Shown here: in pieces, positions 157 to 12,659 of the stretch | Position numbering within the stretch: position 1 is the first letter of the stretch | Layout: each line of letters opens with the position of its first letter | Sequence record: SRR2962707_660 | DNA: 20,593 nt | Reading direction: 5' to 3' (one strand) | Notes under the pieces: model-generated | Database searches by the model: none | What the model saw: only the letters and a program-made list of their open reading frames with translations | What the model was told of the DNA's origin: nothing | Made by a program: the position numbers and the translations under genes

Positions 157-432
157 ATGAGCGACGCGGTTGGGCCCGGCGATCTTGTTCTTTGCGTCAA
201 TGCCGCCCCGAACCATGTGACGGGCCAGCCTGTGCCGTTGCAGGCGGGCGAGACCTATCGTGTTCTCGACGTTCTGGAATTTGCCTGCCCGTGCGGGCGC
301 TCCGATGCGCTGCTCGATGTGGGCGTCGATTTCGCGTGGTGCCAGTCGCGCTTTCGTCTTCTGCCGAAACCCAAAATGGAGGCGAAGCCCCGGCGCGCGT
401 CGGTACCGAAGGAAAAAGAGACCGTCAGGTGA
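157..432 (+). CDS. Small hypothetical protein (91 aa) with an SH3-like pattern, four Cys and a basic C-terminal tail
   Basis: GGAGGG RBS at 146-151 before ATG 157. Pattern GPGDLVLCVNA...LQAGETYRVLDV...FAWCQSRFRLL. Codon usage is host-like. Confidence 0.7.
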   Translation: MSDAVGPGDLVLCVNAAPNHVTGQPVPLQAGETYRVLDVLEFACPCGRSDALLDVGVDFAWCQSRFRLLPKPKMEAKPRRASVPKEKETVR

Positions 433-481
433 ACGGCCGGGCCAAGGGTGCCAGGAGCCGTCGCGAACGCGATCATCCGAT

Positions 482-510
482 AAAAAAGGCCGGGCATCGC
501 TGCCCGGCCT
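482..510 (-). terminator. Rho-independent terminator of the Slam/cargo operon
   Basis: Minus strand reads AGGCCGGGCA-GCGA-TGCCCGGCCT-TTTTT: a perfect 10-bp stem, a GNRA loop and a U-tract, 30 bp after the stop at 541. Confidence 0.85.
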
Positions 511-540
511 GAAGTTTGAGTCTCATCCCGAGGGAGGGGA

Positions 541-2889
541 TCAGTTGAGCGTCTGCGTGAAGACGCCGTTGCCGGTGATGCCGGCATTGCCGAAGCCGAT
601 CAGGTAACCGATGCCAATGGTCTTGCCGCCCTGGCCGAAGGCCTGGCCGCTCATCGAGGCATTGCAGCTACCGGGGTTCGGGCAGGCCGCGCCGGTGCCC
701 GCGCCGTCCGCCGTGAAGGTGACGGGAAGCGAGCCGCCAAAGCTGCCATCGACGCCCATCGTGAACTCCGAACTTGCCGGATTGGCGGCGCCGCCCGTCG
801 TGACGAGGTGGTAGACGGCGTCGCCCGCCATCGCCACGTCGAGATCGGTGCCGATCTTCGTCGCACCGGCGCCGCCCCACGCGACGGTCATCGCGCCGGT
901 GAGCGTACCGGGAGCCGAACGTCCGTCATTGAAGACGGGCGCGCTGTAGCCGGCAAGTTCGTACTCCGCCGAGCCGGTGGTGGGAAGGTCGGACGCCGGG
1001 TTGCCCACCATCCAGTGCATGCCCTTGTTGCCGGAAAGGTCCGCGCTGACATAGCCGTTGAAGGAGCCGGTGCCGCCCGTTTCGCCACCAGTCCAGCGGC
1101 CCCACATGGCGTCGTCGGAGCGGCCGAGTTCGGCCATGCCGTTGGTACCGATATTGGGCGTCGATTCCGACCCGACATTGGTGCGGACCTGGTAGCTGAT
1201 GAGCTCGCCATTCTCGCCGAACACCGCCGCCTTGTCGGTATAGGTGGCATTGCTGCCTTGCTTGGTGACGAGCGCCGTGTAGTTGCCGTCGGCGAAAGGC
1301 GTGTCGAGCGGATCGGACAGGGACGCGACTTCCGCGCCGTTCGTGGTGAAGGCGGCCGAGCCGGTGATGGCCTGCGACAGATAAGCGCTCTGCCAGATCA
1401 TGTAGTTGAGCGCGGCAGACGAGCCGCCTTCGCCTGAAACGAAACCGTAGAGCGAGAAGAAGCAGCTCCCGTTTGACGGGCAGCTACGGCCACCATCGTC
1501 GATGGTGAAGGTGCCCATGCCGGTCTTGATGATGCTGTTCGTCGGATAGGCCGCACCCGTCGTGTAGACCACGAAGGGCGAGAGATGCGGCGTCGTAAGC
1601 CCGCCCGGCGTCTGCACGAGATAGATGTGGTCGTCCGGCATGTCGATCGCGAGATCGAGGCCGACATTCGGCATGCCGCCGCCATAGCCGATGGACATGC
1701 CGCCGGTGAGTGTCCCCGGCAAGCCGCCGCCATCGGCGAAGGTCGGCGCTGTCGCCGCCGCGAGATCGTAATAGGCGATGCCGTAGGTCGGCAGGTTCAC
1801 CGCCGCCGTGCCGACGGCGTAGTGATAGCCATCGACCAGCGGATCGAGTTGCTTCGCGAGATAGCCGGTTGTCGTGCCATCGTTCCAGCGGCCGATTGTG
1901 ACGTCCTCGTTGCCCCAGAGTTCGGCGACCGAGGCCGTTCCGCGATCCGATCCGTCCCCGCCGGTGTAAAGGTTGACGAAGGATTCGAGGGCACCGTCTT
2001 CATCGAGTTCGATGGTCGAGGTGTCGACAAAGCCACCGTTGAACGCGACGAGATAAGGCCCGTCGCCGAGCGGCGCTTCGATCTCGCCGCTGGAGGAAGG
2101 CGGCGGCGGATCGCCCGGCGTGTAGGAGCCTTGCGTAAAGACCGCCGTGCCGGAAATCCGCTTGCCGCGATGGTACTGATCGCTCGGCACCGAGAAATCG
2201 ATGATCTGATAGGCGACACCGACATCCTCGCCCTCGTCGCCGGCGAAGAGGCCGTAGACGATAGCCTGGCAGCCGGAAGAGGGACACGCGGCGCCGCCCT
2301 GCGCGACCTCGATATTGCTGAGGCTGAAGACCCCGCGCGGCGCATTCAGGCTGGCGAGCCCGGAAGGCGCCGCCGCGCCGCCCGCCGTCAGGATCGAATA
2401 GACATGGTCGCCCGGCATGTCGATCGTGAAGTCGATGCCTACTTTGAAGATGGGGCCGAACAGAACGCCAAACTCGCCGGTAAAGGTGCCGGGTGCGAAG
2501 CTGCCATCGTCGATGGTCGGGCTCGTTGCCCCGACGAGATCATAGGTCGCCAGCCCGCCCGTCGGAATGTCGCCCTGCGCGGTCGGCTGTCCGTATACGG
2601 AGTGGAAACCCTGATAGCTGGTGCGGCCGAGCTCGGCGGTGGTCGTACCGTTGAAGCTGTTGTAGTAGTTGCCGTGCGTCTCGCCACCCGCCCAGCGCTC
2701 GATGAAGACGTTGCCGTTCGAGTTGGCGCGTTCGAGCGAGTTGTTGGAGTTGCGTTCGAGGTCTTCGTTCGCGCCGTCGCCGACCTTGTAGCGGTTGAGT
2801 TCGCCCTCCGCGCCGGTGGTGACGGTGACGTCGTAGCGCATGTCGATGCCGATCGCGTCGGCCGCATAGGCGATGACATAGCCCGTGTC
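541..2889 (-). repeat. Three diverged intragenic ~250-aa repeats (nt 2128-2889, 1342-2064, 541-1290; aa ~230-483, 505-745, 763-1011)
   Basis: Aligned by eye: ERWAGG/GRWNDG/GRWTGG; GFHSVYG/GYHYAVG/GMHWMVG; IPTGGLATYDL/LPTYGIAYYDL/LPTTGSAEYEL; DMPGDHVY/DMPDDHIY/AMAGDAVY; CPSSGC/CPSNGSC/CPNPGSC; ISGTAVFT/ITGSAAFT/ITGNGVFT. Confidence 0.9.
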
Positions 2890-3576
2890 CTCGTCGCCCG
2901 TGACGGGCACGACGACGCCGGTGACGGGCGGTGTTCCACCGTATTTCGGGCCGCCGGAACCGCCCGCGGCCTCCTCGACGATTTTGGAGCCTTCCGAGCC
3001 CTGGTCATCGGCGGGCGAATAATTCGTATCGTCCGGCCCCGGTTGCGTCATTTGCGTCGTGTTGACCGGCGGCGGCGTGAAGGTGCCCGCAATCGTGGTC
3101 TCGCTTGCTTCATAGCCCTGACCGGCTGCGAAGTCGCGGCTACCCGACCCGTTCGCTACGGTCGCCGTGCCCTGATTGACGCGGCCGGCAAGCCCGCCAT
3201 CCTCGCCCTCGAAGGCCGAGAAGGCCCCGCCTGTCGTGGAGATCGTGACGCCGCCCTTGGAAATCGAGATCGGCGTGCCGTTGGAGGAAACGCGCATCGC
3301 ACCCGAGACGAGTTCAAACGAAATGTTGTCGCCCTCGCCCGTCAGCGTGAAGACGGAGCCGGGTTCGATGGTGATGATGCTGCCATCGGGCGCCTCAAGC
3401 TGGAGCAGTGTGGTCGCGGTGACGGTCTGGCCGGGCTCGATGTTAGCGGCAGAAGCGCCGTCGACGCTTGCCCCGCCGAACAATACCGGCAGCGCCATCG
3501 CGCCACCCGCCGAAAGGGAAAGAACTGCCGCCAGCGCCGTGGTTGCCAGAAGCCTGTTGAAAGAAATGCTTTTCAT
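541..3576 (-). CDS. Large secreted protein (1011 aa): Sec signal peptide, FecR-like domain and three tandem TbpB/hemophilin-like handle+beta-barrel repeats; putative Slam/T11SS cargo
   Basis: AAGGAG RBS. Signal peptide MKSISFNRLLATTALAAVLSLSAGGAMA has no lipobox Cys. FecR-like motifs PDGSIITIEPGS, ELVSG and RVNQGTATV (aa ~46-160). Three repeats share RWxxG, GxHxxxG, PTxGxAxYxL, PGTxTG, CPx3-4C and a terminal I(S/T)GxxxFT. Lies 17 bp downstream of the Slam-like gene. Confidence 0.85.
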   Translation of the reverse strand: MKSISFNRLLATTALAAVLSLSAGGAMALPVLFGGASVDGASAANIEPGQTVTATTLLQLEAPDGSIITIEPGSVFTLTGEGDNISFELVSGAMRVSSNGTPISISKGGVTISTTGGAFSAFEGEDGGLAGRVNQGTATVANGSGSRDFAAGQGYEASETTIAGTFTPPPVNTTQMTQPGPDDTNYSPADDQGSEGSKIVEEAAGGSGGPKYGGTPPVTGVVVPVTGDEDTGYVIAYAADAIGIDMRYDVTVTTGAEGELNRYKVGDGANEDLERNSNNSLERANSNGNVFIERWAGGETHGNYYNSFNGTTTAELGRTSYQGFHSVYGQPTAQGDIPTGGLATYDLVGATSPTIDDGSFAPGTFTGEFGVLFGPIFKVGIDFTIDMPGDHVYSILTAGGAAAPSGLASLNAPRGVFSLSNIEVAQGGAACPSSGCQAIVYGLFAGDEGEDVGVAYQIIDFSVPSDQYHRGKRISGTAVFTQGSYTPGDPPPPSSSGEIEAPLGDGPYLVAFNGGFVDTSTIELDEDGALESFVNLYTGGDGSDRGTASVAELWGNEDVTIGRWNDGTTTGYLAKQLDPLVDGYHYAVGTAAVNLPTYGIAYYDLAAATAPTFADGGGLPGTLTGGMSIGYGGGMPNVGLDLAIDMPDDHIYLVQTPGGLTTPHLSPFVVYTTGAAYPTNSIIKTGMGTFTIDDGGRSCPSNGSCFFSLYGFVSGEGGSSAALNYMIWQSAYLSQAITGSAAFTTNGAEVASLSDPLDTPFADGNYTALVTKQGSNATYTDKAAVFGENGELISYQVRTNVGSESTPNIGTNGMAELGRSDDAMWGRWTGGETGGTGSFNGYVSADLSGNKGMHWMVGNPASDLPTTGSAEYELAGYSAPVFNDGRSAPGTLTGAMTVAWGGAGATKIGTDLDVAMAGDAVYHLVTTGGAANPASSEFTMGVDGSFGGSLPVTFTADGAGTGAACPNPGSCNASMSGQAFGQGGKTIGIGYLIGFGNAGITGNGVFTQTLN

Positions 3577-3593
3577 GGGGATGGCTCCTTGGA

Positions 3594-4967
3594 TCAGAAA
3601 TCGAGACTGAGGGAGACGGAAGCGACGACGCGGTCGTACTCGTAGAGCACGATGTTGCTGTCGGAGCGCGTATAGGCGACTTCGCCGCCAAGGGTGAGAT
3701 CGTCGCGCAGCGAATACCGAAGTCCCGCCGACGCATCCGCCCGCACCACCGAACGTTCTTCGAGGAAGAGGGGATCGGGTTCCTCATATTCGGAGACTTC
3801 GATCGCGGCGACGGCGTAACCGCGCAGGCGCGGCATCAGCGTGAGTTCGCCACCGACCCGCAGCCCCCCAAAGACATAGGAGAGATGGTCGAAGGTGCTG
3901 TCGGTGAGCTTTTCGTAGCCCGCATAAGCACCGCCATAGACGTAAGGCTCGCTCGACCCGCCGAGCGACTGGCCGAGGGTGGCGCCCGCCGTGTAGCGGT
4001 TCGCGTTCTGGACGCTGTTCTTCGGATAATTGAGCTTCGCGTATTGGAGATAGACGGCGTAATCGGTCATGCCCGCCGTGCGATAGGTCCACTGGCCGAG
4101 AGCGCCGTAAGTGTAGCGATAGGCTTCATCATCGACCCAGTAGGACTGGATCTGCGCCGAAAGCGCGAAGGTGCCGTGATCCGGCGTGCGCTGCGCGATG
4201 CCGATATTGATGCCCGCAAGGCCCTGGTTGAACTGATCGAAATCCTCGTTCGCGCGGTAGGAGGCATTGAGGTCGACCAGAAGCTGCCGGTCGATCGACA
4301 GGCCATGGGTGAGTGAGGTGCGGCCCGAGACTTCGCCGAAGAAATCTTCTTCCGACGTGGCGCCCGCGCCGAGCGTCGCGAAACCGAGACCGGCGAAGGC
4401 CGGGATCAGGATACGGCTGTCGCTCGTCGAATTGTTGACGTTGGTGTCGTAGCCTGCCTTGAGCGTGACGCGGTTTTCGATGGTCGTGCCGCCGCCCGAA
4501 AGCCCGGTATCAAGCGCCGCGACATAGCGGTCGATGGTGGCGCGCACGCTGTCCGGCACGCCGGGCTGGCCTTCGACGGTGGCGAGTTCGCGGCGCGCGG
4601 CTTCGGGCTCGTTCATGGCGATATAGGCGCGGCCGAGTTCCGCGCGGGCCTGAAGGTGGGAGGGGTCGACAGCGAGCACGCGCTCGAAAGCGGCGACCGC
4701 TTCCGCCGGGCGGCCTGAATCGATGGCCGCAATGCCGAGCGTGTAGTCGAATTCGGGATTGCCAGCGCGGGCACGCTCTTCGGGTTTCAGAATCTGATAG
4801 GCGCCTGCGGCATCGCCCGCGCCGAGCTTCTGCTGCGCCTCCTCGACGGAACCCGCCGTCGCCGCACCCGCCGCCGCGAGCGCCAGCGCGCCCGCGAGAA
4901 CAAGCGGCCTGATCCGGCTTTGCCCGAATTGAAATAGCGGCCTCGCGGCCCCCCGTGTCACCCTCAT
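3594..4967 (-). CDS. TPR + outer-membrane beta-barrel protein, Slam / DUF560 (type XI secretion) family, ~457 aa
   Basis: Likely start at ATG 4967 (GGGGTGA RBS-like), followed by a signal peptide. TPR segment PEFDYTLGIAAIDSGRPAEAVAAFERVLAVDPSHLQARAELGRAY. Barrel opens with AGYDTNVN, has a late SNIVLYEYDR motif and a C-terminal beta-signal VSLSLDF. Confidence 0.85.
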   Translation of the reverse strand: MRVTRGAARPLFQFGQSRIRPLVLAGALALAAAGAATAGSVEEAQQKLGAGDAAGAYQILKPEERARAGNPEFDYTLGIAAIDSGRPAEAVAAFERVLAVDPSHLQARAELGRAYIAMNEPEAARRELATVEGQPGVPDSVRATIDRYVAALDTGLSGGGTTIENRVTLKAGYDTNVNNSTSDSRILIPAFAGLGFATLGAGATSEEDFFGEVSGRTSLTHGLSIDRQLLVDLNASYRANEDFDQFNQGLAGINIGIAQRTPDHGTFALSAQIQSYWVDDEAYRYTYGALGQWTYRTAGMTDYAVYLQYAKLNYPKNSVQNANRYTAGATLGQSLGGSSEPYVYGGAYAGYEKLTDSTFDHLSYVFGGLRVGGELTLMPRLRGYAVAAIEVSEYEEPDPLFLEERSVVRADASAGLRYSLRDDLTLGGEVAYTRSDSNIVLYEYDRVVASVSLSLDF

Positions 4968-5167
4968 CGCTTCACCCCGTTTTATGCACGTGCAACAGAC
5001 CCGATCCGCCGATGGCCGATGAATCGGACGCGCGATTCCCGCGCTTTCGAGGCGAGAGTAGGGAGAGGGGGCGGCAGCCCGCATGACCCAATTGGACTAA
5101 GGCGCGCTTCCGGGAGCGGTTTGGGGGCGCAAAAGAGCGGAAGCTGGGCTAAGTTCGCGGGCGCGGA

Positions 5168-5182
5168 GACATATATAATGTC
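5168..5182. promoter_or_regulatory. AT-rich inverted repeat GACAT-ATATA-ATGTC containing a perfect TATAAT (5174-5179); candidate gmhA -10 element or operator
   Basis: Directly visible AT island in the GC-rich divergent intergenic region, ~30 bp upstream of the gmhA start. No clear -35. Confidence 0.45.
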
Positions 5183-5211
5183 CACCATCACGAGACGCGG
5201 AGACGCACCCC

Positions 5212-5790
5212 TTGGGCGCACATGACATTTTCCGGGCTGCTTTCGACGAACACCACAGGGTGGCGCACGAAACAGCGAAGAAACTCGAAGACGATTTCGC
5301 GAGCCTCGCGGCTGCCTGTTCGGAAGCGGTGGCGGGCGGCGGCAAGCTGCTCTTCTTCGGCAATGGCGGCAGCGCGGCCGACGCGCAGCACATCGCGGCG
5401 GAACTTTCGGTGCGTTATGTGAAGGATCGCCCGGCGATTGCGGCGATTGCGCTGACGACCGACACATCGGTGCTGACGGCGGCGGCGAACGACATGGGCT
5501 ATGAGCGCGTGTTCGAGCGGCAGGTGGAGGCGCTGGGACGGCGCGGCGACCTCGCCATCGGCATTTCGACTTCGGGCAAAAGCCGCAATGTCGTGCTGGG
5601 CCTTGAAGCGGCGCGCAAACAGGGCCTCGTAACGGCGGCCTTCGCGGGCGCGGACCCGAATCTGATGGCCGGACTTGCCGACCACATTCTCTGCGTGCCG
5701 TCGACCACGACCGCGCGCATCCAGGAAATGCACATCACGCTCGGCCACATGCTCTGCGCGGCCATCGAGACGCAGCTCGGCTACGTCTGA
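5212..5790 (+). CDS. gmhA: Phosphoheptose isomerase (sedoheptulose-7-phosphate isomerase)
   Basis: Motifs FFGNGGSAADAQHIAAEL, ALTTDTSVLTAAANDMGYERVFERQVEALG, ISTSGKS and TARIQEMHITLGH. TTG start with GGAGA RBS. Confidence 0.95.
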   Translation: MGAHDIFRAAFDEHHRVAHETAKKLEDDFASLAAACSEAVAGGGKLLFFGNGGSAADAQHIAAELSVRYVKDRPAIAAIALTTDTSVLTAAANDMGYERVFERQVEALGRRGDLAIGISTSGKSRNVVLGLEAARKQGLVTAAFAGADPNLMAGLADHILCVPSTTTARIQEMHITLGHMLCAAIETQLGYV

Positions 5791-6611
5791 ACGCCGGCGA
5801 GCAGCGTGAGCGCAACGGGTCCGAGCATGATTGCGTTGTAGGACATGTGAAGAATCGCCGCAGCCCGCAGTGACCCGGCCCATCCGGCAGCCATCGCCAA
5901 AAGCACCCCGACAAGGAACAGTAGTCCGGTGATCACCCACGCCGCTACGCCGGTTAAAATGAACAGATGGCCGTGGATCAGCGAAAACAGACATGACGAA
6001 ACGACAACTGCAGCCGCAATTGGCAAATGACGCTTCAGAACTCGCAGCATGATGCCGCGGAAATAAATCTCCTCGGCGAGCGGTGCCATGACGATGGCCA
6101 GAATCAACAGCAGGACAATTGCCAGAGGATCGGACGGTATGAGACGCAGTTCCTGCTCCTCGAATTGCCTTTGAGCATCCGCCGGCATAATCGACATGAG
6201 ATAGAGGACCGCGAGCGCGGTCACGACGCCGACGACAACCGCAAGCACTTCAGCTTGCCAGCCGATTGGCGCGAAGTAGGCTTTCGAGATGGATCTTCCC
6301 CGGAAGTAGAAAAGCATTATCGCCATCAGAATGACGATCACATAAAGGAAGATCATCAGCGCCTGGCCGACATATTCCTTTCCGGCCCAAATCAAGAGGA
6401 TGTCCTGCAAGTTGTCCGGCGCTACGCCCCGGCTGAGGGCGATGAGGCCAAGCACAAACCCAAGAACGACCATCAATCCTGCCGTCATGGCGATGGCGAC
6501 AACCGGTACAAGGAACAAGTCCCACCAGCGCTCCGGCGGGCGCGGCGCGGGCACAGGCTCCGCAAATTCGGGATGATCGCGCGGCTCCGCGTCCGGGCCC
6601 CAGACCACCAT
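5781..6611 (-). CDS. CPBP family (CAAX/Abi) intramembrane glutamic endopeptidase, ~276 aa
   Basis: Motifs LAEEIYFRG, FSLIH and HMSYN, with multiple TM helices. Start at ATG 6611, 5 bp after the hldE stop. 3' end overlaps the convergent gmhA by 10 bp. Confidence 0.9.
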   Translation of the reverse strand: MVVWGPDAEPRDHPEFAEPVPAPRPPERWWDLFLVPVVAIAMTAGLMVVLGFVLGLIALSRGVAPDNLQDILLIWAGKEYVGQALMIFLYVIVILMAIMLFYFRGRSISKAYFAPIGWQAEVLAVVVGVVTALAVLYLMSIMPADAQRQFEEQELRLIPSDPLAIVLLLILAIVMAPLAEEIYFRGIMLRVLKRHLPIAAAVVVSSCLFSLIHGHLFILTGVAAWVITGLLFLVGVLLAMAAGWAGSLRAAAILHMSYNAIMLGPVALTLLAGVQT

Positions 6612-6616
6612 GAGGC

Positions 6617-8089
6617 TCAGCGCCCGAGACGGGCGATGGTGCCCGTGGTGCTGAAGCCCGGCACGATGTCGACGATCTCGACGCGGCCGCCATTCGCCTG
6701 CACGAAATCCGCGCCGACGATTTCCGATACCTTGTAGTCGCCGCCCTTCACGAGGAGATCGGGACGCAGCGCCTCGATCAATCGCGCGGGCGTGTCTTCC
6801 TCGAAGACGACGACGAGATCGACGGACTGCAGCGCCGCAAGCACTGTCGCGCGTGCGATATCGGGCTGCACGGGGCGGCCCTCGCCCTTGAGACGCTTGA
6901 CCGAGGCATCGCTGTTCAAACCAACGACGAGCCGGTCGCAAAGCGCGCGCGACTTGTCGAGCAGCGTGACGTGGCCGGGATGCAGCAGATCGAAGCAGCC
7001 ATTGGTGAAGCCGACGCTGAGCCCGCGCGCGCGCCAGCCCTCCACGATATCGCGCGCGGCATCGAGGCCCGCGACTTTCGCTTCCAGCGCCGAGAGCTCG
7101 CGCTCGCGAAGTTTCGCTGCAAGTTCTTGCGCATGAACAACCGCAGTACCGACCTTGCCGACGACGATGCCGGCGGCGGAATTGGCCAGCGCGGCGGCTT
7201 GCGGCAGAGAAAGCCCGCTGCCAAGCGCGGCGGCGAGCGTGGAGACGACCGTGTCGCCCGCGCCGGAAACATCGAACACTTCGCGCGCTTCGGCTTTCAG
7301 ATGCGTGACGTCTTTGGCTGTAACGACGCTCATGCCCGCCTGCGCGCGCGTGACAACGACAGCGCCGATGCCGTGCGCGACGATGAGCGCGCGCGCGGCG
7401 GCAACGATCTCCTCGTCGCTATCGACCAGAAGCCCCGTCGCCTCGCCGAGTTCCTTGCGGTTCGGCGTCACGACATCCGCTTTCGCATAGCGCGCGTAGT
7501 CGCGGCCCTTCGGATCGATCACGACGGGAAGGCCCTTCGCGCGCGCAGCGGCGATGGCGGCGGCGAGCACGGCGGGCGTGAGTACGCCCTTGCCATAGTC
7601 GGAGAGGACGAGCACGTCCTTCTGCCCAAGGGCTGCGGTGAGCGCGGCGATGAATTTTTCCGATGGAGCGGCACCGAGCGGTAAGCTCGTCTCGCGGTCG
7701 ACGCGAAGCACCTGCTGACCCATCGCGACGAAGCGCATCTTCACCGTCGTCTCGCGGCCGGGAACGACGGTGAGCGAGGAGGCGACGGCTTCGGCATCGA
7801 GCGCGGCCTTCAGTTCCACGCCCGCCTCATCGTCGCCGACCACGGAAAGGAAATCGACCCTGGCGCCGAGCGCGGCGAGATTGCGCGCGACATTGCCCGC
7901 GCCGCCCGGCATCGCCTTCTCGTCGCCGACGCGCAGCACCGGGATCGGTGCTTCGGGCGAAATGCGGCTGACCTCGCCATAGACGAAGCGGTCGAGCATG
8001 ACGTCGCCCGCAAGCGCCACGCGGGCACGCGCCAACCCCTCCACCAGCGCCTGAATATCCGGGCCGTTCGCGGTCTCTTTATCGGTCAT
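6617..8089 (-). CDS. hldE: Bifunctional heptose-7-phosphate kinase / heptose-1-phosphate adenylyltransferase
   Basis: PfkB kinase motifs [28 protein letters not shown] and DVSGAGDTV. Nucleotidyltransferase motifs [26 protein letters not shown] and GFSTT. Confidence 0.96.
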
Positions 8090-8191
8090 TCACTGGTCCC
8101 GGATCGTGCGGTTTGTGTCATGGTGGCGGAAAGCGGCTCAAGATAGCGTAAAAATGCCGCCCTGTTCCGGCCCGATGCTGAAGCTCGCCTC

Positions 8192-8821
8192 ATGACCATA
8201 CCCCCCGATATCTGGCTTTCGACGGCGACCCCGCCCCGGCGGACGGGCGCGCCCGCCCTCTTTCTCGACCGGGACGGGGTTCTCGTCAAGGAAGTCAACT
8301 ATCTGAAAAACAAGGAAGATGTGGCGCTGGAGGCGGGCGCGGCGGAGATTGTCGCCTGGGGCCGGGCGAAGGGGCTTGGCCTTGTCTGCGTCACCAACCA
8401 GTCCGGCATCGCGCGCGGGCGGATCTCATGGGCGGAATTCGAGGCGGTGGAAGTGGAAATCGCGCGCCAGCTCGGGAAGCGGGACGCGGCGCTCGACCTC
8501 ACCATCGCCTGCCCCTTCCACCCGGATTTCACCGAAGGCTACGGAGCGGAACAGGACCGCTGGCGCAAACCCGGCCCCGCGATGATCGAACGGGCGGGCA
8601 CGCTGATGGACCTCGACCTCGCGAGAAGCTGGCTCATCGGCGACAAGGCCGCCGACATCGAAGCGGCAAAGCGCGCGGGTCTCAAAGGCGCGGTGATCGT
8701 GCTAACCGGCTACGGCGTGGAAGAGCGCGAACCCGCGATGGCGCATGAGGGCGACGGCTTCACCGTGCTGACGGCGGCGACGCTCAATGAGGCGCGGACG
8801 CTGCTGGAGACGGCGTTCTAG
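8192..8821 (+). CDS. gmhB: D,D-heptose 1,7-bisphosphate phosphatase (HAD superfamily)
   Basis: Motifs FLDRDGVL, VTNQSGIARG, CPFHP, RKPGPAM and IGDKAADI. Adjacent to hldE. Confidence 0.9.
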   Translation: MTIPPDIWLSTATPPRRTGAPALFLDRDGVLVKEVNYLKNKEDVALEAGAAEIVAWGRAKGLGLVCVTNQSGIARGRISWAEFEAVEVEIARQLGKRDAALDLTIACPFHPDFTEGYGAEQDRWRKPGPAMIERAGTLMDLDLARSWLIGDKAADIEAAKRAGLKGAVIVLTGYGVEEREPAMAHEGDGFTVLTAATLNEARTLLETAF

Positions 8822-10367: not shown

Positions 10368-10547
10368 GGAAACCCGGACCGGGGCCCGGCGTGGCCGATT
10401 GCCGCGCTTTTCTCCGTCGCAGCCGCGCGAACGGGGGGGAGTCGACCTGAGCGCCTGGAATGGTAACAATGAGGGAAAGCGGCCAGACGACAGAGCCGCA
10501 TGTTCGAGGGAGCAAACGGGGCTGAGGCCTCGGGGGAGCGTTTCAGG

Positions 10548-12659
10548 GTGACTGGTTTTCGGTATGCGTACCGCACGCGCGGCAAGGCGGGTTCGTCCTT
10601 CGTTTTCATTTCATGGCTGCTGGGGGCCTCTCTTGCCGCTTCGGGCGCGATGGCGCAGGAGGCGGGCGGCAAAAGCCTACTGCTCGACGAACTTACCGTC
10701 ACGACGACCGGCATCGGCACGCCGCGCGCGACCCATACCGGCAACATCTCCAAAATCCCGGAAGCTGAAGTCGACTTCGTGAAGCCGCTGCAGCCCGCCG
10801 AGGTGCTGAGCCGCGTCCCCGGCGTCGGCATCCAGCAGGGCAGCGGCGCCGAACACCTGACCGCCATCCGCTCGCCGGTGCTGACCGGTGGCGCAGGCGC
10901 AGGCTCCTTCCTCTACCTCGAAGACGGCGTGCCGATGCGCGCCGCAGGCTTTGCCAATGTCAACGCACTGATGGAAGCGATGGACGAGGTGTCGGGCGGC
11001 ATCGAGGTGGTGCGCGGGCCCGGCGGCGCGCGCTACGGCTCGAACGCCGAACACGGCCTCATCAATTTCCTGAGCCGCCCGCCCGCGCCGGACGAAGACG
11101 GCGAGCTGACCGTATGGGGCGGCCCGCACGACCTCTTCGAGGTGACGGGCACCGCGAGCAAGACGCTCCGGGGCGAAGGCGCGGTGAACCACGGCTTCCG
11201 CGGCAGCTTCTCCGTGCTGCATGACGGCGGCTTTCGCGCCGATTCCGGCCTTGAGCAGCAGAAGGCTCGCTTCCGCTACGACTACGACGCGCCGGGCACC
11301 CGCATCGAGGCGACGCTGACCGCCGTAAATACCCAACAGGAAACGGCCGGCTTCGTTGTCGGCCCCGACGCCTACAAGAACCCCGCGCTCTACAAGACCA
11401 ACCCGGACCCGGACGCCTATCGCGACGCATGGGCGCTGCGCACGGCGGTTCGCATGGAGCGCGATCTCGACGACGATCTGATGCTCGTGCTGACGCCCTA
11501 TGCGCGCAAGAACGACATGAAATTCCTGATGCATTTTCTGCCCGGCGACCCGGTGGAGGAAAACTCCCATTGGAGTGGCGGCCTCCTTTCGAGCCTCGTT
11601 GCGCAGCTCGACGGCGGCCACAGCGTCATCTTCGGCTTCGATACGGAGTACACGGACGGATCGCTCACCGAAACCCAGTATAACGCCACGCCGCCCTTCC
11701 CCGCGCCGCCGAACGACTCGCCGCAGGGCGTTCACTACGACTACACGGTGAAGGCGATTGTGCTTGCGCCCTACATCCACAGCGAATGGCGGCTTGCGCC
11801 GAAGACACTGTTCACGGCGGGTCTGCGTTTCGAGTACACGCGCTACGACTATGAGAACAACGCGCCGAACGGCGTCTTCGGGCGCTATTTGCGCGTGCCG
11901 AGCAGCGTCGACGAATTCGCAGACGTGACGCCGAAGATCGGCCTGCTGCATGAGTTCAACGACAGCCTCACAGGCTATGTGAACATCGCGCGTGGCGCGC
12001 GTGCGCCCCAGACGACTGATCTCTACCGGCTGCAATATCTCCAGGTTCCCGGCGAGGCAAAATCGGAGGAACTGGACAGCATCGAAGTTGGTGCACGCGG
12101 GCGCTTCGCGGACATCTCCTGGGAAACCAATCTCTTCTACATGGAGAAGAAGAACTACTATTTCCGCAACGCCAACGGCTTCAACGTGTCGAACGGCAAG
12201 ACCGATCACGCAGGAATCGAGCTCGAACTGGCCGCCCCCCTTCCGCTCGGCTTCGACATTGCCGCCGCAGGCACCTATGCCCGCCACACCTATGCCTTCA
12301 CCAACATAGCGGCGACGGAGACCATTCTCGACGGCGACGATGTCGACACCGCGCCGCGCACTCTTGCCAATGTCCGTCTCGGCTACGGTTTCGGCGACGG
12401 CGCGGGCCGGGCCGAGCTCGAATGGGTCCATATGGGCGACTATTGGATGGACGCGGGCAACACCGTCCAATATGGCGGGCACGATATTTTCAACCTGCGC
12501 CTCGACTATGAAATCGGCGAGAACCTTGCCTTGTTCGGCAAGCTGACCAATATCTTCGATACGCGCTACGCGGATCGGGCCGATTTCGCCTTCGGCAGCG
12601 AACGCTATTTCCCCGGCGAGGATCGCGGCCTCATTCTGGGCGTAACCCTGCGCTACTAG
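10548..12659 (+). CDS. TonB-dependent outer-membrane receptor, ~703 aa
   Basis: Likely GTG start at 10548 (GGGGGAG RBS); the ORF is open from 10500. Signal peptide ending AMA, TonB box DELTVT, plug motifs LSRVPGV and IEVVRGPGGARYGSNA..GLINF, and C-terminal NIFDTRY...GVTLRY. Confidence 0.93.
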   Translation: MTGFRYAYRTRGKAGSSFVFISWLLGASLAASGAMAQEAGGKSLLLDELTVTTTGIGTPRATHTGNISKIPEAEVDFVKPLQPAEVLSRVPGVGIQQGSGAEHLTAIRSPVLTGGAGAGSFLYLEDGVPMRAAGFANVNALMEAMDEVSGGIEVVRGPGGARYGSNAEHGLINFLSRPPAPDEDGELTVWGGPHDLFEVTGTASKTLRGEGAVNHGFRGSFSVLHDGGFRADSGLEQQKARFRYDYDAPGTRIEATLTAVNTQQETAGFVVGPDAYKNPALYKTNPDPDAYRDAWALRTAVRMERDLDDDLMLVLTPYARKNDMKFLMHFLPGDPVEENSHWSGGLLSSLVAQLDGGHSVIFGFDTEYTDGSLTETQYNATPPFPAPPNDSPQGVHYDYTVKAIVLAPYIHSEWRLAPKTLFTAGLRFEYTRYDYENNAPNGVFGRYLRVPSSVDEFADVTPKIGLLHEFNDSLTGYVNIARGARAPQTTDLYRLQYLQVPGEAKSEELDSIEVGARGRFADISWETNLFYMEKKNYYFRNANGFNVSNGKTDHAGIELELAAPLPLGFDIAAAGTYARHTYAFTNIAATETILDGDDVDTAPRTLANVRLGYGFGDGAGRAELEWVHMGDYWMDAGNTVQYGGHDIFNLRLDYEIGENLALFGKLTNIFDTRYADRADFAFGSERYFPGEDRGLILGVTLRY

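Follow-up and report, generated by a model that had tools for sequence, protein, structure and literature searches.

The stretch of DNA analysed here, SRR2962707_660 (20,593 nucleotides; this whole stretch is called the window below), carries two adjacent genes, one for an outer-membrane protein (OMP) with tetratricopeptide repeats (TPR) and one for a secreted protein of 1011 aa. It raises the question whether the two encode the translocon and the cargo of a type 11 (Slam-type) secretion system (T11SS). We consider this probable, at roughly three chances in four: the pair reads as a two-gene T11SS operon of a Parvibaculum-clade alphaproteobacterium, with predicted export of the cargo through the OMP. 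The reading is well supported by the family assignment of the OMP, the predicted fold of the cargo and the conserved order of the two genes. A first-pass annotation made from the sequence alone had proposed such a pair in an environmental alphaproteobacterium, and the host was placed in the Parvibaculum clade from homologues and related loci, in agreement with that proposal.

In the mechanism proposed here, both proteins would cross the inner membrane via Sec. The 457-aa OMP would insert in the outer membrane by its DUF560/SlipAM barrel, with its TPR repeats in the periplasm, and would pass the acidic, non-lipidated cargo across the outer membrane. The cargo is predicted to consist of a head of FecR-like beta-sandwich type that a disordered linker joins to three lobes in tandem. 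In each lobe a beta-sheet handle would precede a soluble eight-stranded barrel held together by a single Cys pair. As in known cargo, the C-terminal lobe may be the address by which the translocon recognises its substrate. The head and the first lobe, the best-conserved parts, are likely to be the working end, and this end probably binds an extracellular ligand or partner. The roles suggested at first pass, a ligand scavenger, an adhesin or a surface-layer-like protein, are candidates. The cargo is probably of a type absent from the published cargo catalogues. What is new is a cargo family recognisable by structure only and lacking a Pfam model (1399 clusters), together with its FecR head.

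Operon anatomy and the outer-membrane protein

Two minus-strand open reading frames (ORFs) occupy positions 541-5084, the OMP gene lying upstream and the cargo gene downstream (Table 1). The longest OMP ORF begins at 5084, and a start at 4967 (Met40 of that ORF) was preferred because it fits the starts of the homologues and leaves a Sec-type signal peptide; the homologues begin at the equivalent Met and continue with a basic and then a hydrophobic stretch, ending in ...AATA|G. The signal peptides of both proteins were read by eye from the sequence, not taken from a predictor. The distance from the OMP stop (3594-3596) to the cargo ATG (3576) was 17 nt, with AAGGAG placed 8 nt 5' of the ATG. 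The intrinsic terminator, 30 nt past the cargo stop, has a stem of 10 bp, 8 of them GC pairs, and a loop of 4 nt, with TTTTTAT after the hairpin, and was the strongest of 7 terminator-like sites in 300-5400 (shuffled mean 3.6). Upstream, gmhA is transcribed divergently, and the two genes thus form an operon of their own. The two-gene anatomy, the 17-bp gap, the 1011-aa secreted protein and the strong terminator described in the first-pass annotation were all recovered from the ORFs and the sequence.

Table 1. Coordinates of the operon, its protein domains and the neighbouring genes in the window
Feature	Position	Strand	Basis and remarks
Intrinsic terminator	482..510	-	hairpin in sequence; stem 510..487, then T-run
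Cargo gene, 1011 aa	541..3576	-	ORF and translation; stop included
Cargo module 3, C-terminal handle + barrel	544..1293	-	residues 762-1011, Cys965/Cys971; AlphaFold2 (AF2), Foldseek, VIA-align
Cargo module 2, handle + barrel	1327..2064	-	residues 505-750, Cys699/Cys705; hhalign
Cargo module 1, handle + 8-stranded barrel	2119..2901	-	residues 226-486, Cys431/Cys436; hhalign
Cargo linker, disordered, Gly/Pro-rich	2902..3081	-	residues 166-225; predicted local distance difference test (pLDDT) <50 at 166-211
Cargo FecR-like beta-sandwich head, N-terminal	3082..3492	-	residues 29-165; Pfam FecR, hhalign
Cargo Sec signal peptide, no lipobox	3493..3576	-	residues 1-28, AMA|LP; pLDDT <50 at 1-26
Intergenic spacer, 17 nt, with cargo ribosome-binding site AAGGAG (3585-3590)	3577..3593	-	sequence read
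OMP gene (Slam/T11SS-like)	3594..4967	-	457 aa from Met40 of ORF 3594..5084; stop included
OMP DUF560/SlipAM beta-barrel domain	3600..4346	-	residues 208-456; Pfam PF04575
OMP periplasmic TPR repeats	4575..4748	-	residues 74-131; Pfam
OMP signal peptide	4854..4967	-	residues 1-38, ...AAGAATA|GSVEE; sequence read, homologues share hydrophobic stretch
Divergent intergenic region, OMP gene/gmhA	4968..5211	.	presumed promoter location
gmhA	5212-5790	+	SIS_2 78.7 bits; upstream neighbour, divergent
Rce1-like/CPBP intramembrane protease ORF	5781-6941	-	PF02517, 57 bits
hldE-like, bifunctional	6617-8089	-	PfkB + cytidylyltransferase
gmhB-like HAD phosphatase	8192-8821	+	heptose cluster member
TonB-dependent receptor, 719-aa ORF	10500-12659	+	Plug + barrel

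The OMP scored 29.2 bits (cut-off 22; E 8.8e-7) with the SlipAM/DUF560 family (PF04575) of Pfam, over profile positions 44-287 of 288. The TPR families TPR_19 (47.1 bits), TPR_16 (35.0) and TPR_2 (29.8) all exceeded their own Pfam cut-offs. The closest ESM Atlas clusters combined TPR_19 with SlipAM, which was found on 78-94% of their members, and a SlipAM match at E<=0.01 was obtained for 19 of the 22 OMP homologues from the related loci described below. A phmmer search of the PDB with the OMP returned TPR proteins only and no Slam structure. Family comparison therefore supports the identification of the OMP as a TPR plus SlipAM/DUF560 protein, as the first-pass annotation had expected.

Head, modules and predicted fold of the cargo

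The first Cys of the cargo is residue 431, and the protein is therefore not a lipoprotein. The mature protein is very acidic and contains 17% Gly, 10.4% Asp+Glu and 3.2% Lys+Arg. Homologues numbered 56 matches, about 45 of them full-length (1005-1038 aa), and included Plav_1899 from Parvibaculum lavamentivorans DS-1 and one P. indicum protein; Sphingomonadales yielded longer relatives (1244-1641 aa). NCBIfam holds no family for the cargo, and the sole match in a Pfam scan at E<=1 was FecR. The name 'trimeric autotransporter adhesin', given by JGI to the homologue P0008, was rejected, as no autotransporter family matched.

Comparison of the cargo with itself by BLASTP detected no repeats. Module profiles were then cut from an alignment of 43 full-length homologues, and hhalign related all three modules to each other with a probability of 100% over 213-226 columns (E 4e-47 and 2e-48 for module 1 against modules 2 and 3, and 9e-47 for the third comparison). 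The head showed no relation to the modules in the profile comparison. Each module has one conserved Cys pair. Module 1 was the most conserved, with mean pairwise identities of 67% in the handle and 57% in the barrel, compared to 42-45% for modules 2 and 3, of which module 2 had 42%; with 64% in the head, the head and the module 1 handle are the best-conserved parts of the cargo.

An AF2 model of the whole cargo, based on 43 sequences, was all-beta with a mean pLDDT of 80.8, and disorder was confined to the signal peptide and residues 166-211. When this model was compared with the PDB using Foldseek, intact TbpB was the top match (3hol, E 1.1e-9, about 620 aligned columns), followed by LbpB and the hemophilins/HphA, all with a probability of 1.00. 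Residues 755-1011, modelled on their own (pLDDT 87.3, predicted TM-score 0.88), gave short strands that make up the handle and, after them, 8 long strands (model residues 114-254). The Foldseek matches of this module 3 model were HphA, hemophilin, TbpB lobes, fHbp, HpuA and LbpB (E 4e-6 to 3e-4). It was also compared with 48,161 representative chains by VIA-align, where ranks 1-16 were all Slam/T11SS cargo (Z 10.1-12.7), spanning model residues 8-257. The matches included the TbpB C-lobe (Z 12.7, 195 aa, 4.1 A), the NHBA C-domain (Z 12.6, 143 aa, 2.5 A), fHbp (Z 11.6, 175 aa, 4.0 A), HpuA (Z 11.5, 176 aa, 3.3 A) and the hemophilin/HphA structures 7re4 (hemophilin; Z 11.1, 168 aa, 3.5 A) and 8gm3 (Z 10.9). 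Taken as models, these results support three cargo modules that each have a handle and an 8-stranded barrel of the TbpB/hemophilin fold. The first-pass annotation had claimed three such modules and suggested comparing the repeats with TbpB and HphA by AlphaFold and Foldseek. The modules were upheld by hhalign (E about 1e-47) and by the 8 long strands of module 3, and HphA, hemophilin and TbpB were indeed the top matches.

Small membrane-embedded barrels of the OmpW/OmpA/NspA type could resemble such lobes. In that case the 1011-aa protein would itself be an OMP assembled by BAM, and the TPR-barrel protein upstream would be an unrelated porin or assembly factor. VIA-align did find that generic 8-stranded membrane barrels match the barrel half alone at Z about 9 (OmpW, NspA, PagL and OmpA, Z 8.7-9.5), a point that counts against the cargo reading. 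However, the 16 higher-ranking matches were soluble Slam-cargo lobes and included the handle, which membrane barrels do not have. The conserved Cys pair in every barrel, the very acidic composition and the strict pairing with a SlipAM protein also fit a cargo better, and we regard membrane-embedded barrels as very unlikely.

The first-pass annotation had also assigned a FecR-like domain to the N-terminus. By Pfam score this claim fell short: the match of residues 57-137 to profile positions 10-95 of 97 in FecR (PF04773) reached 20.2 bits, and the cut-off is 24. It gained support from the homologues, 37 of 43 having a FecR match at E<=0.01 (best E 6e-5), and from the relatives P0168 and P0173, which carry a single module and a true FecR domain (54 and 52 bits, respectively). 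An hhalign comparison of the cargo head with the FecR heads of these two gave a probability of 87.8% (E 3.3e-6, 112 columns); an hmmsearch run with the profile of the head missed both at E<=1e-3. A look-up of the head in the ESM Atlas (scores 0.88-0.90) found FecR on 13% of one cluster only and was taken as a lead. From these comparisons the FecR-like head is probably real in spite of its score below the Pfam cut-off.

Conservation of the gene pair and spread of the module family

Related loci were collected from one genome per species, giving 22 loci, mostly from Parvibaculum but also from Rhodobiaceae, Rhizomicrobium, Euryhalocaulis and a metagenome-assembled genome (MAG) labelled Hoeflea. 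In all 22 an OMP homologue with 53-92% identity was located directly upstream of the cargo gene on the same strand. The OMP was conserved above the cargo, for example with 77% vs 47% identity in locus L004. The remaining neighbours were variable: heptose genes occurred in 5 loci, and the most distant loci shared none of the window's neighbours. In three Parvibaculum genomes the single SlipAM match of each lay beside the module-bearing gene, and in each of five genomes searched exactly three module matches were found, all within one gene. Two observations concern individual loci. In L022 (6639-7905) the OMP homologue lies in two frames (tblastn pieces 73-156 and 146-496), so that either it is a pseudogene or the MAG contains a frameshift. 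In L008 (11217-13016) and L009 (11197-13023) the cargo gene is followed on the same strand, after about 150 bp, by a gene for a 600-aa protein that ends in an alpha/beta-hydrolase domain; the two proteins are 57% identical to each other, and the window has no counterpart.

The module was further searched for in genome samples of increasing breadth. In an order-level sample it was present in 22 of 73 genomes; 19 of these had three matches, and G338, G348 and G358 had two full-length matches only. Among other genomes of the class it was detected in 1 of 300 at E<=1e-10, and in a sample of the phylum (Pseudomonadota) in 6 of 400 at E<=1e-8. In 6 of 7 unrelated Pseudomonadota genomes a Slam-like OMP gene preceded the module gene on the same strand, with 0-30 bp from its end to the start of the module gene; PF04575 identified three of these OMPs and the OMP profile the other three. 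The seventh genome, G714, gave weak partial module matches on short contigs and no OMP was found in it. A true FecR domain (39.7-43 bits) was present in the three single-module partners from the unrelated genomes, and no FecR domain was detected by Pfam scan in the three multi-module partners. One of the six partners had a weak, sub-threshold Phage_TTP_11 match within a module (17.2 vs 28.4 bits), and otherwise no Pfam family was found on the modules of these six.

These data bear on the alternative that the two genes are transcribed together without being translocon and cargo, the OMP for example serving other substrates and the presumed cargo leaving by another route or staying in the periplasm. 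This would be compatible with the fact that gene order is the sole link between them. However, the pairing persists where all other neighbours differ, in 22/22 loci and in 6/7 unrelated genomes, and the C-terminus of the partner has the fold that marks T11SS cargo. The single SlipAM match and the single module gene standing side by side in three Parvibaculum genomes argue in the same direction, and an unrelated co-transcription therefore appears very unlikely. The neighbourhood survey thus agreed with the OMP-cargo pairing put forward at first pass.

A family search profile was built from 39 modules. With clusters at 50% identity, it retrieved 1399 clusters at E<=1e-3, 865 at E<=1e-10 and 319 at E<=1e-30. 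Among the best 150 representatives, 18 proteins had one module, 58 had two, 52 had three, 17 had four, 4 had five and 1 had six. Within the same set, a module ended <=25 aa from the C-terminus in 92 proteins, the head of the window type was present in 14 and a lipobox-like motif in 8. No Pfam family was found on the module in any of 46 sampled members. Judged by sequence, the window shares its triple lobe with many members of a large cargo family that lacks annotation.

Some members of the family differ in layout. Relatives of 1500-2400 aa (P0050, P0052, P0048 and others) have a long helical repeat region between head and lobes, in which matches to Phage_int_SAM_1 and DPC2 were judged spurious. 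P0048 also has Pro-Thr repeats, as in the published 'Sphingomonas surface proteins'. P0054 (609 aa) begins with a TPR part of Slam type and the start of the barrel, and continues without a break into two modules like those of the cargo; a deletion may have fused the OMP and cargo genes, or the assembly may be chimeric.

Besides the membrane-barrel matches mentioned above, several results weigh against a T11SS pair. The SlipAM score of the OMP was modest. The Slam-specific TPR model PF24575 remained sub-threshold (18.5 bits vs a cut-off of 35.2) and was found in 17 of 22 OMP homologues only at E<=0.01. The related porin model BBP2_2 also matched 19 of the 22, although in the window OMP its match covered only the last 48 residues. 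The modules had no sequence similarity to any solved cargo or Pfam family, TbpB_B_D included, and PDB searches with whole-protein and module profiles yielded chance matches only (E 0.11 or weaker). The TM-scores of the module 3 Foldseek matches were just 0.35-0.47. Because of this lack of sequence similarity and these TM-scores, the modules are linked to known cargo through the predicted fold. A TonB-dependent receptor is also an inconsistent partner: the one in the window lies 5.4 kb off behind six unrelated genes, its orthologue was found within 8 kb in 1 of 22 loci, and L019 carries a different one. A complex prediction for the mature OMP and the last module scored 0.00, which, run without controls or alignments, is no evidence either way.

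Genomic context and comparison with known systems

The FecR-type head raises a further possibility, namely that the pair is a tether or sensor spanning the envelope. The Slam-like barrel would then thread only part of its partner, leaving the FecR-like head in the periplasm, where FecR's own domain also resides, and the lobes on the surface, and the pair would relay a surface event to a signalling protein of the inner membrane rather than release a scavenger. In a variant, the head would remain periplasmic or bind a partner in that compartment while the three TbpB-like lobes are displayed outside, and surface binding would be coupled to inner-membrane signalling, in some lineages through a histidine kinase. 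In agreement with this, the head is the best-conserved part of the cargo, partners in other lineages likewise begin with a FecR-type head, and an orthologous HisKA_3 kinase (38-55% identity) is encoded with a NarL-type regulator, divergently and directly upstream of the pair, in L019, L021 and L022. However, the window contains no kinase, cyclase or sigma/anti-sigma gene over its 20.6 kb, the kinase query was not found in three Parvibaculum genomes, adjoining regulators may just control transcription, and known T11SS cargo is wholly surface-exposed or released. We therefore consider a tether or sensor improbable. If it were true, sensing in free-living bacteria would be added to the roles of the type 11 secretion family.

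The kinase genes were located at L019 3606-6463, L021 3436-6695 and L022 3479-6366, three distant loci from different genera. They encode proteins of 700-853 aa, in which a sensor part of about 520-650 aa has no Pfam family, and in L008 a different hybrid kinase with a regulator occupies the same position upstream of the pair. The HisKA_3 kinase may regulate the operon; it is less likely that it receives a signal from it. A universal kinase link was dropped because that query did not recover the kinase from the three Parvibaculum genomes. NsrA, which in the part of PMC7529298 drawn on here is an outer-membrane receptor of about 1200 aa that works with CHASE2 cyclases, was kept together with CyaK as a distant analogy only, because there is no cyclase in the window.

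In the divergent region upstream of the OMP gene, 0 sites for a sigma-70 consensus promoter were found in 300-5400. The G+C content is 62-69% across the window, and an AT-rich stretch, TTATATAT, is present at about 5171-5178. By its coordinates it falls within an AT-rich, partly palindromic sequence at 5165-5183 (GGACATTATATATGTCTCC on the minus strand), a candidate -10 element or operator. Beyond this region the operon adjoins a cluster for the heptose pathway of lipopolysaccharide (5212-8821), and the same trio of heptose genes flanks the pair in 5/22 related loci. The CPBP protease ORF overlaps the listed hldE ORF, and its true start is therefore probably later; Rce1-like homologues were found upstream of the OMP-cargo pair in 14/22 loci. 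No signalling extension was detected in the TonB-dependent receptor of the window, and its listed ORF overlaps a long CtaG ORF on the opposite strand.

Among known systems the pair resembles those of hemophilin type (HrpB/HrpC of Xenorhabdus, Hpl, HphA/HsmA), in which a DUF560 OMP gene adjoins the gene for a Sec-secreted, non-lipidated cargo of handle and 8-stranded barrel, and hemophilin/HphA structures took Foldseek ranks 1-3 for module 3. Unlike the single-lobe hemophilins, the window cargo has three predicted lobes and a FecR-like head. The window pair also differs in having no detectable sequence similarity to those systems and no adjoining TonB-dependent receptor or haem-utilisation gene, and its host is a free-living marine alphaproteobacterium. 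With Slam1/Slam2 of Neisseria it shares a TPR + DUF560 translocon and a cargo of repeated handle-barrel lobes. The Neisseria cargo (TbpB, LbpB, fHbp and HpuA) is lipidated, has one lobe or two and binds iron proteins of the host, whereas the window cargo has three lobes and no lipobox, TbpB_B_D signature or host. The head is similar to FecR (PF04773), the periplasmic domain of the FecR anti-sigma factor. In contrast to that factor, the cargo has no transmembrane or anti-sigma part, neither FecI nor a receptor with signalling extension is encoded nearby, and the FecR-like domain forms the N-terminal part of a predicted secreted protein. To our knowledge, all experimentally verified T11SS cargo comes from animal-associated bacteria.

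The latest T11SS cargo catalogue (Grossman et al. 2025, PMC12282271) is used here in its text, cargo tables and supplement as far as they concern these points. It found cargo by sequence similarity to verified ones, and noted that many environmental OMPs have no recognisable cargo and that some cargo possibly falls below the sequence threshold. Environmental Sphingomonadaceae OMPs had likewise been placed in subcluster 1C, without cargo, in the corresponding part of Grossman et al. 2021 (PMC8406197). For Sphingomonas and Psychrobacter, the 2025 catalogue describes predicted cargo that contains two to three pairs of handle and barrel, some of it in environmental Alphaproteobacteria, and the window cargo is similar in this respect. 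The claim made at first pass that the architecture is unlike any characterised cargo thus holds for cargo characterised by experiment, but not for predicted cargo, and 52 of the best 150 representatives of the module family are three-lobed as well. By their description in the catalogue, the 'Sphingomonas' and 'Psychrobacter surface proteins' were found via TbpB_B_D and have N-termini with Pro-Thr or PTD repeats, whereas the window's family has a FecR-like head and no Pfam family on its modules. Term searches of the text and cargo tables of PMC12282271 found no FecR or Parvibaculum cargo. In the portion of its supplement used here, FecR occurs only as a co-occurring Pfam domain (201 neighbourhoods, false discovery rate 0.24, excluded) and Parvibaculum in housekeeping clusters only. 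A literature search for FecR with T11SS or Slam, with preprint supplements outside its scope, found no FecR-fused T11SS cargo; two 2023 preprints mention FecR as a neighbouring regulator only. A literature search with the Parvibaculum locus tags found no paper that names them.

The module family was unseen by Pfam models and, by sequence, by solved structures, yet in Parvibaculum as well as in unrelated Pseudomonadota its genes follow immediately after one of Slam type. It thus offers a profile for finding the missing cargo of environmental translocons. One translocon and one cargo per genome make a simple system for studying translocon recognition, with three candidate address domains in a single protein, and the recurring FecR-type head would add a role for this domain outside the cell.

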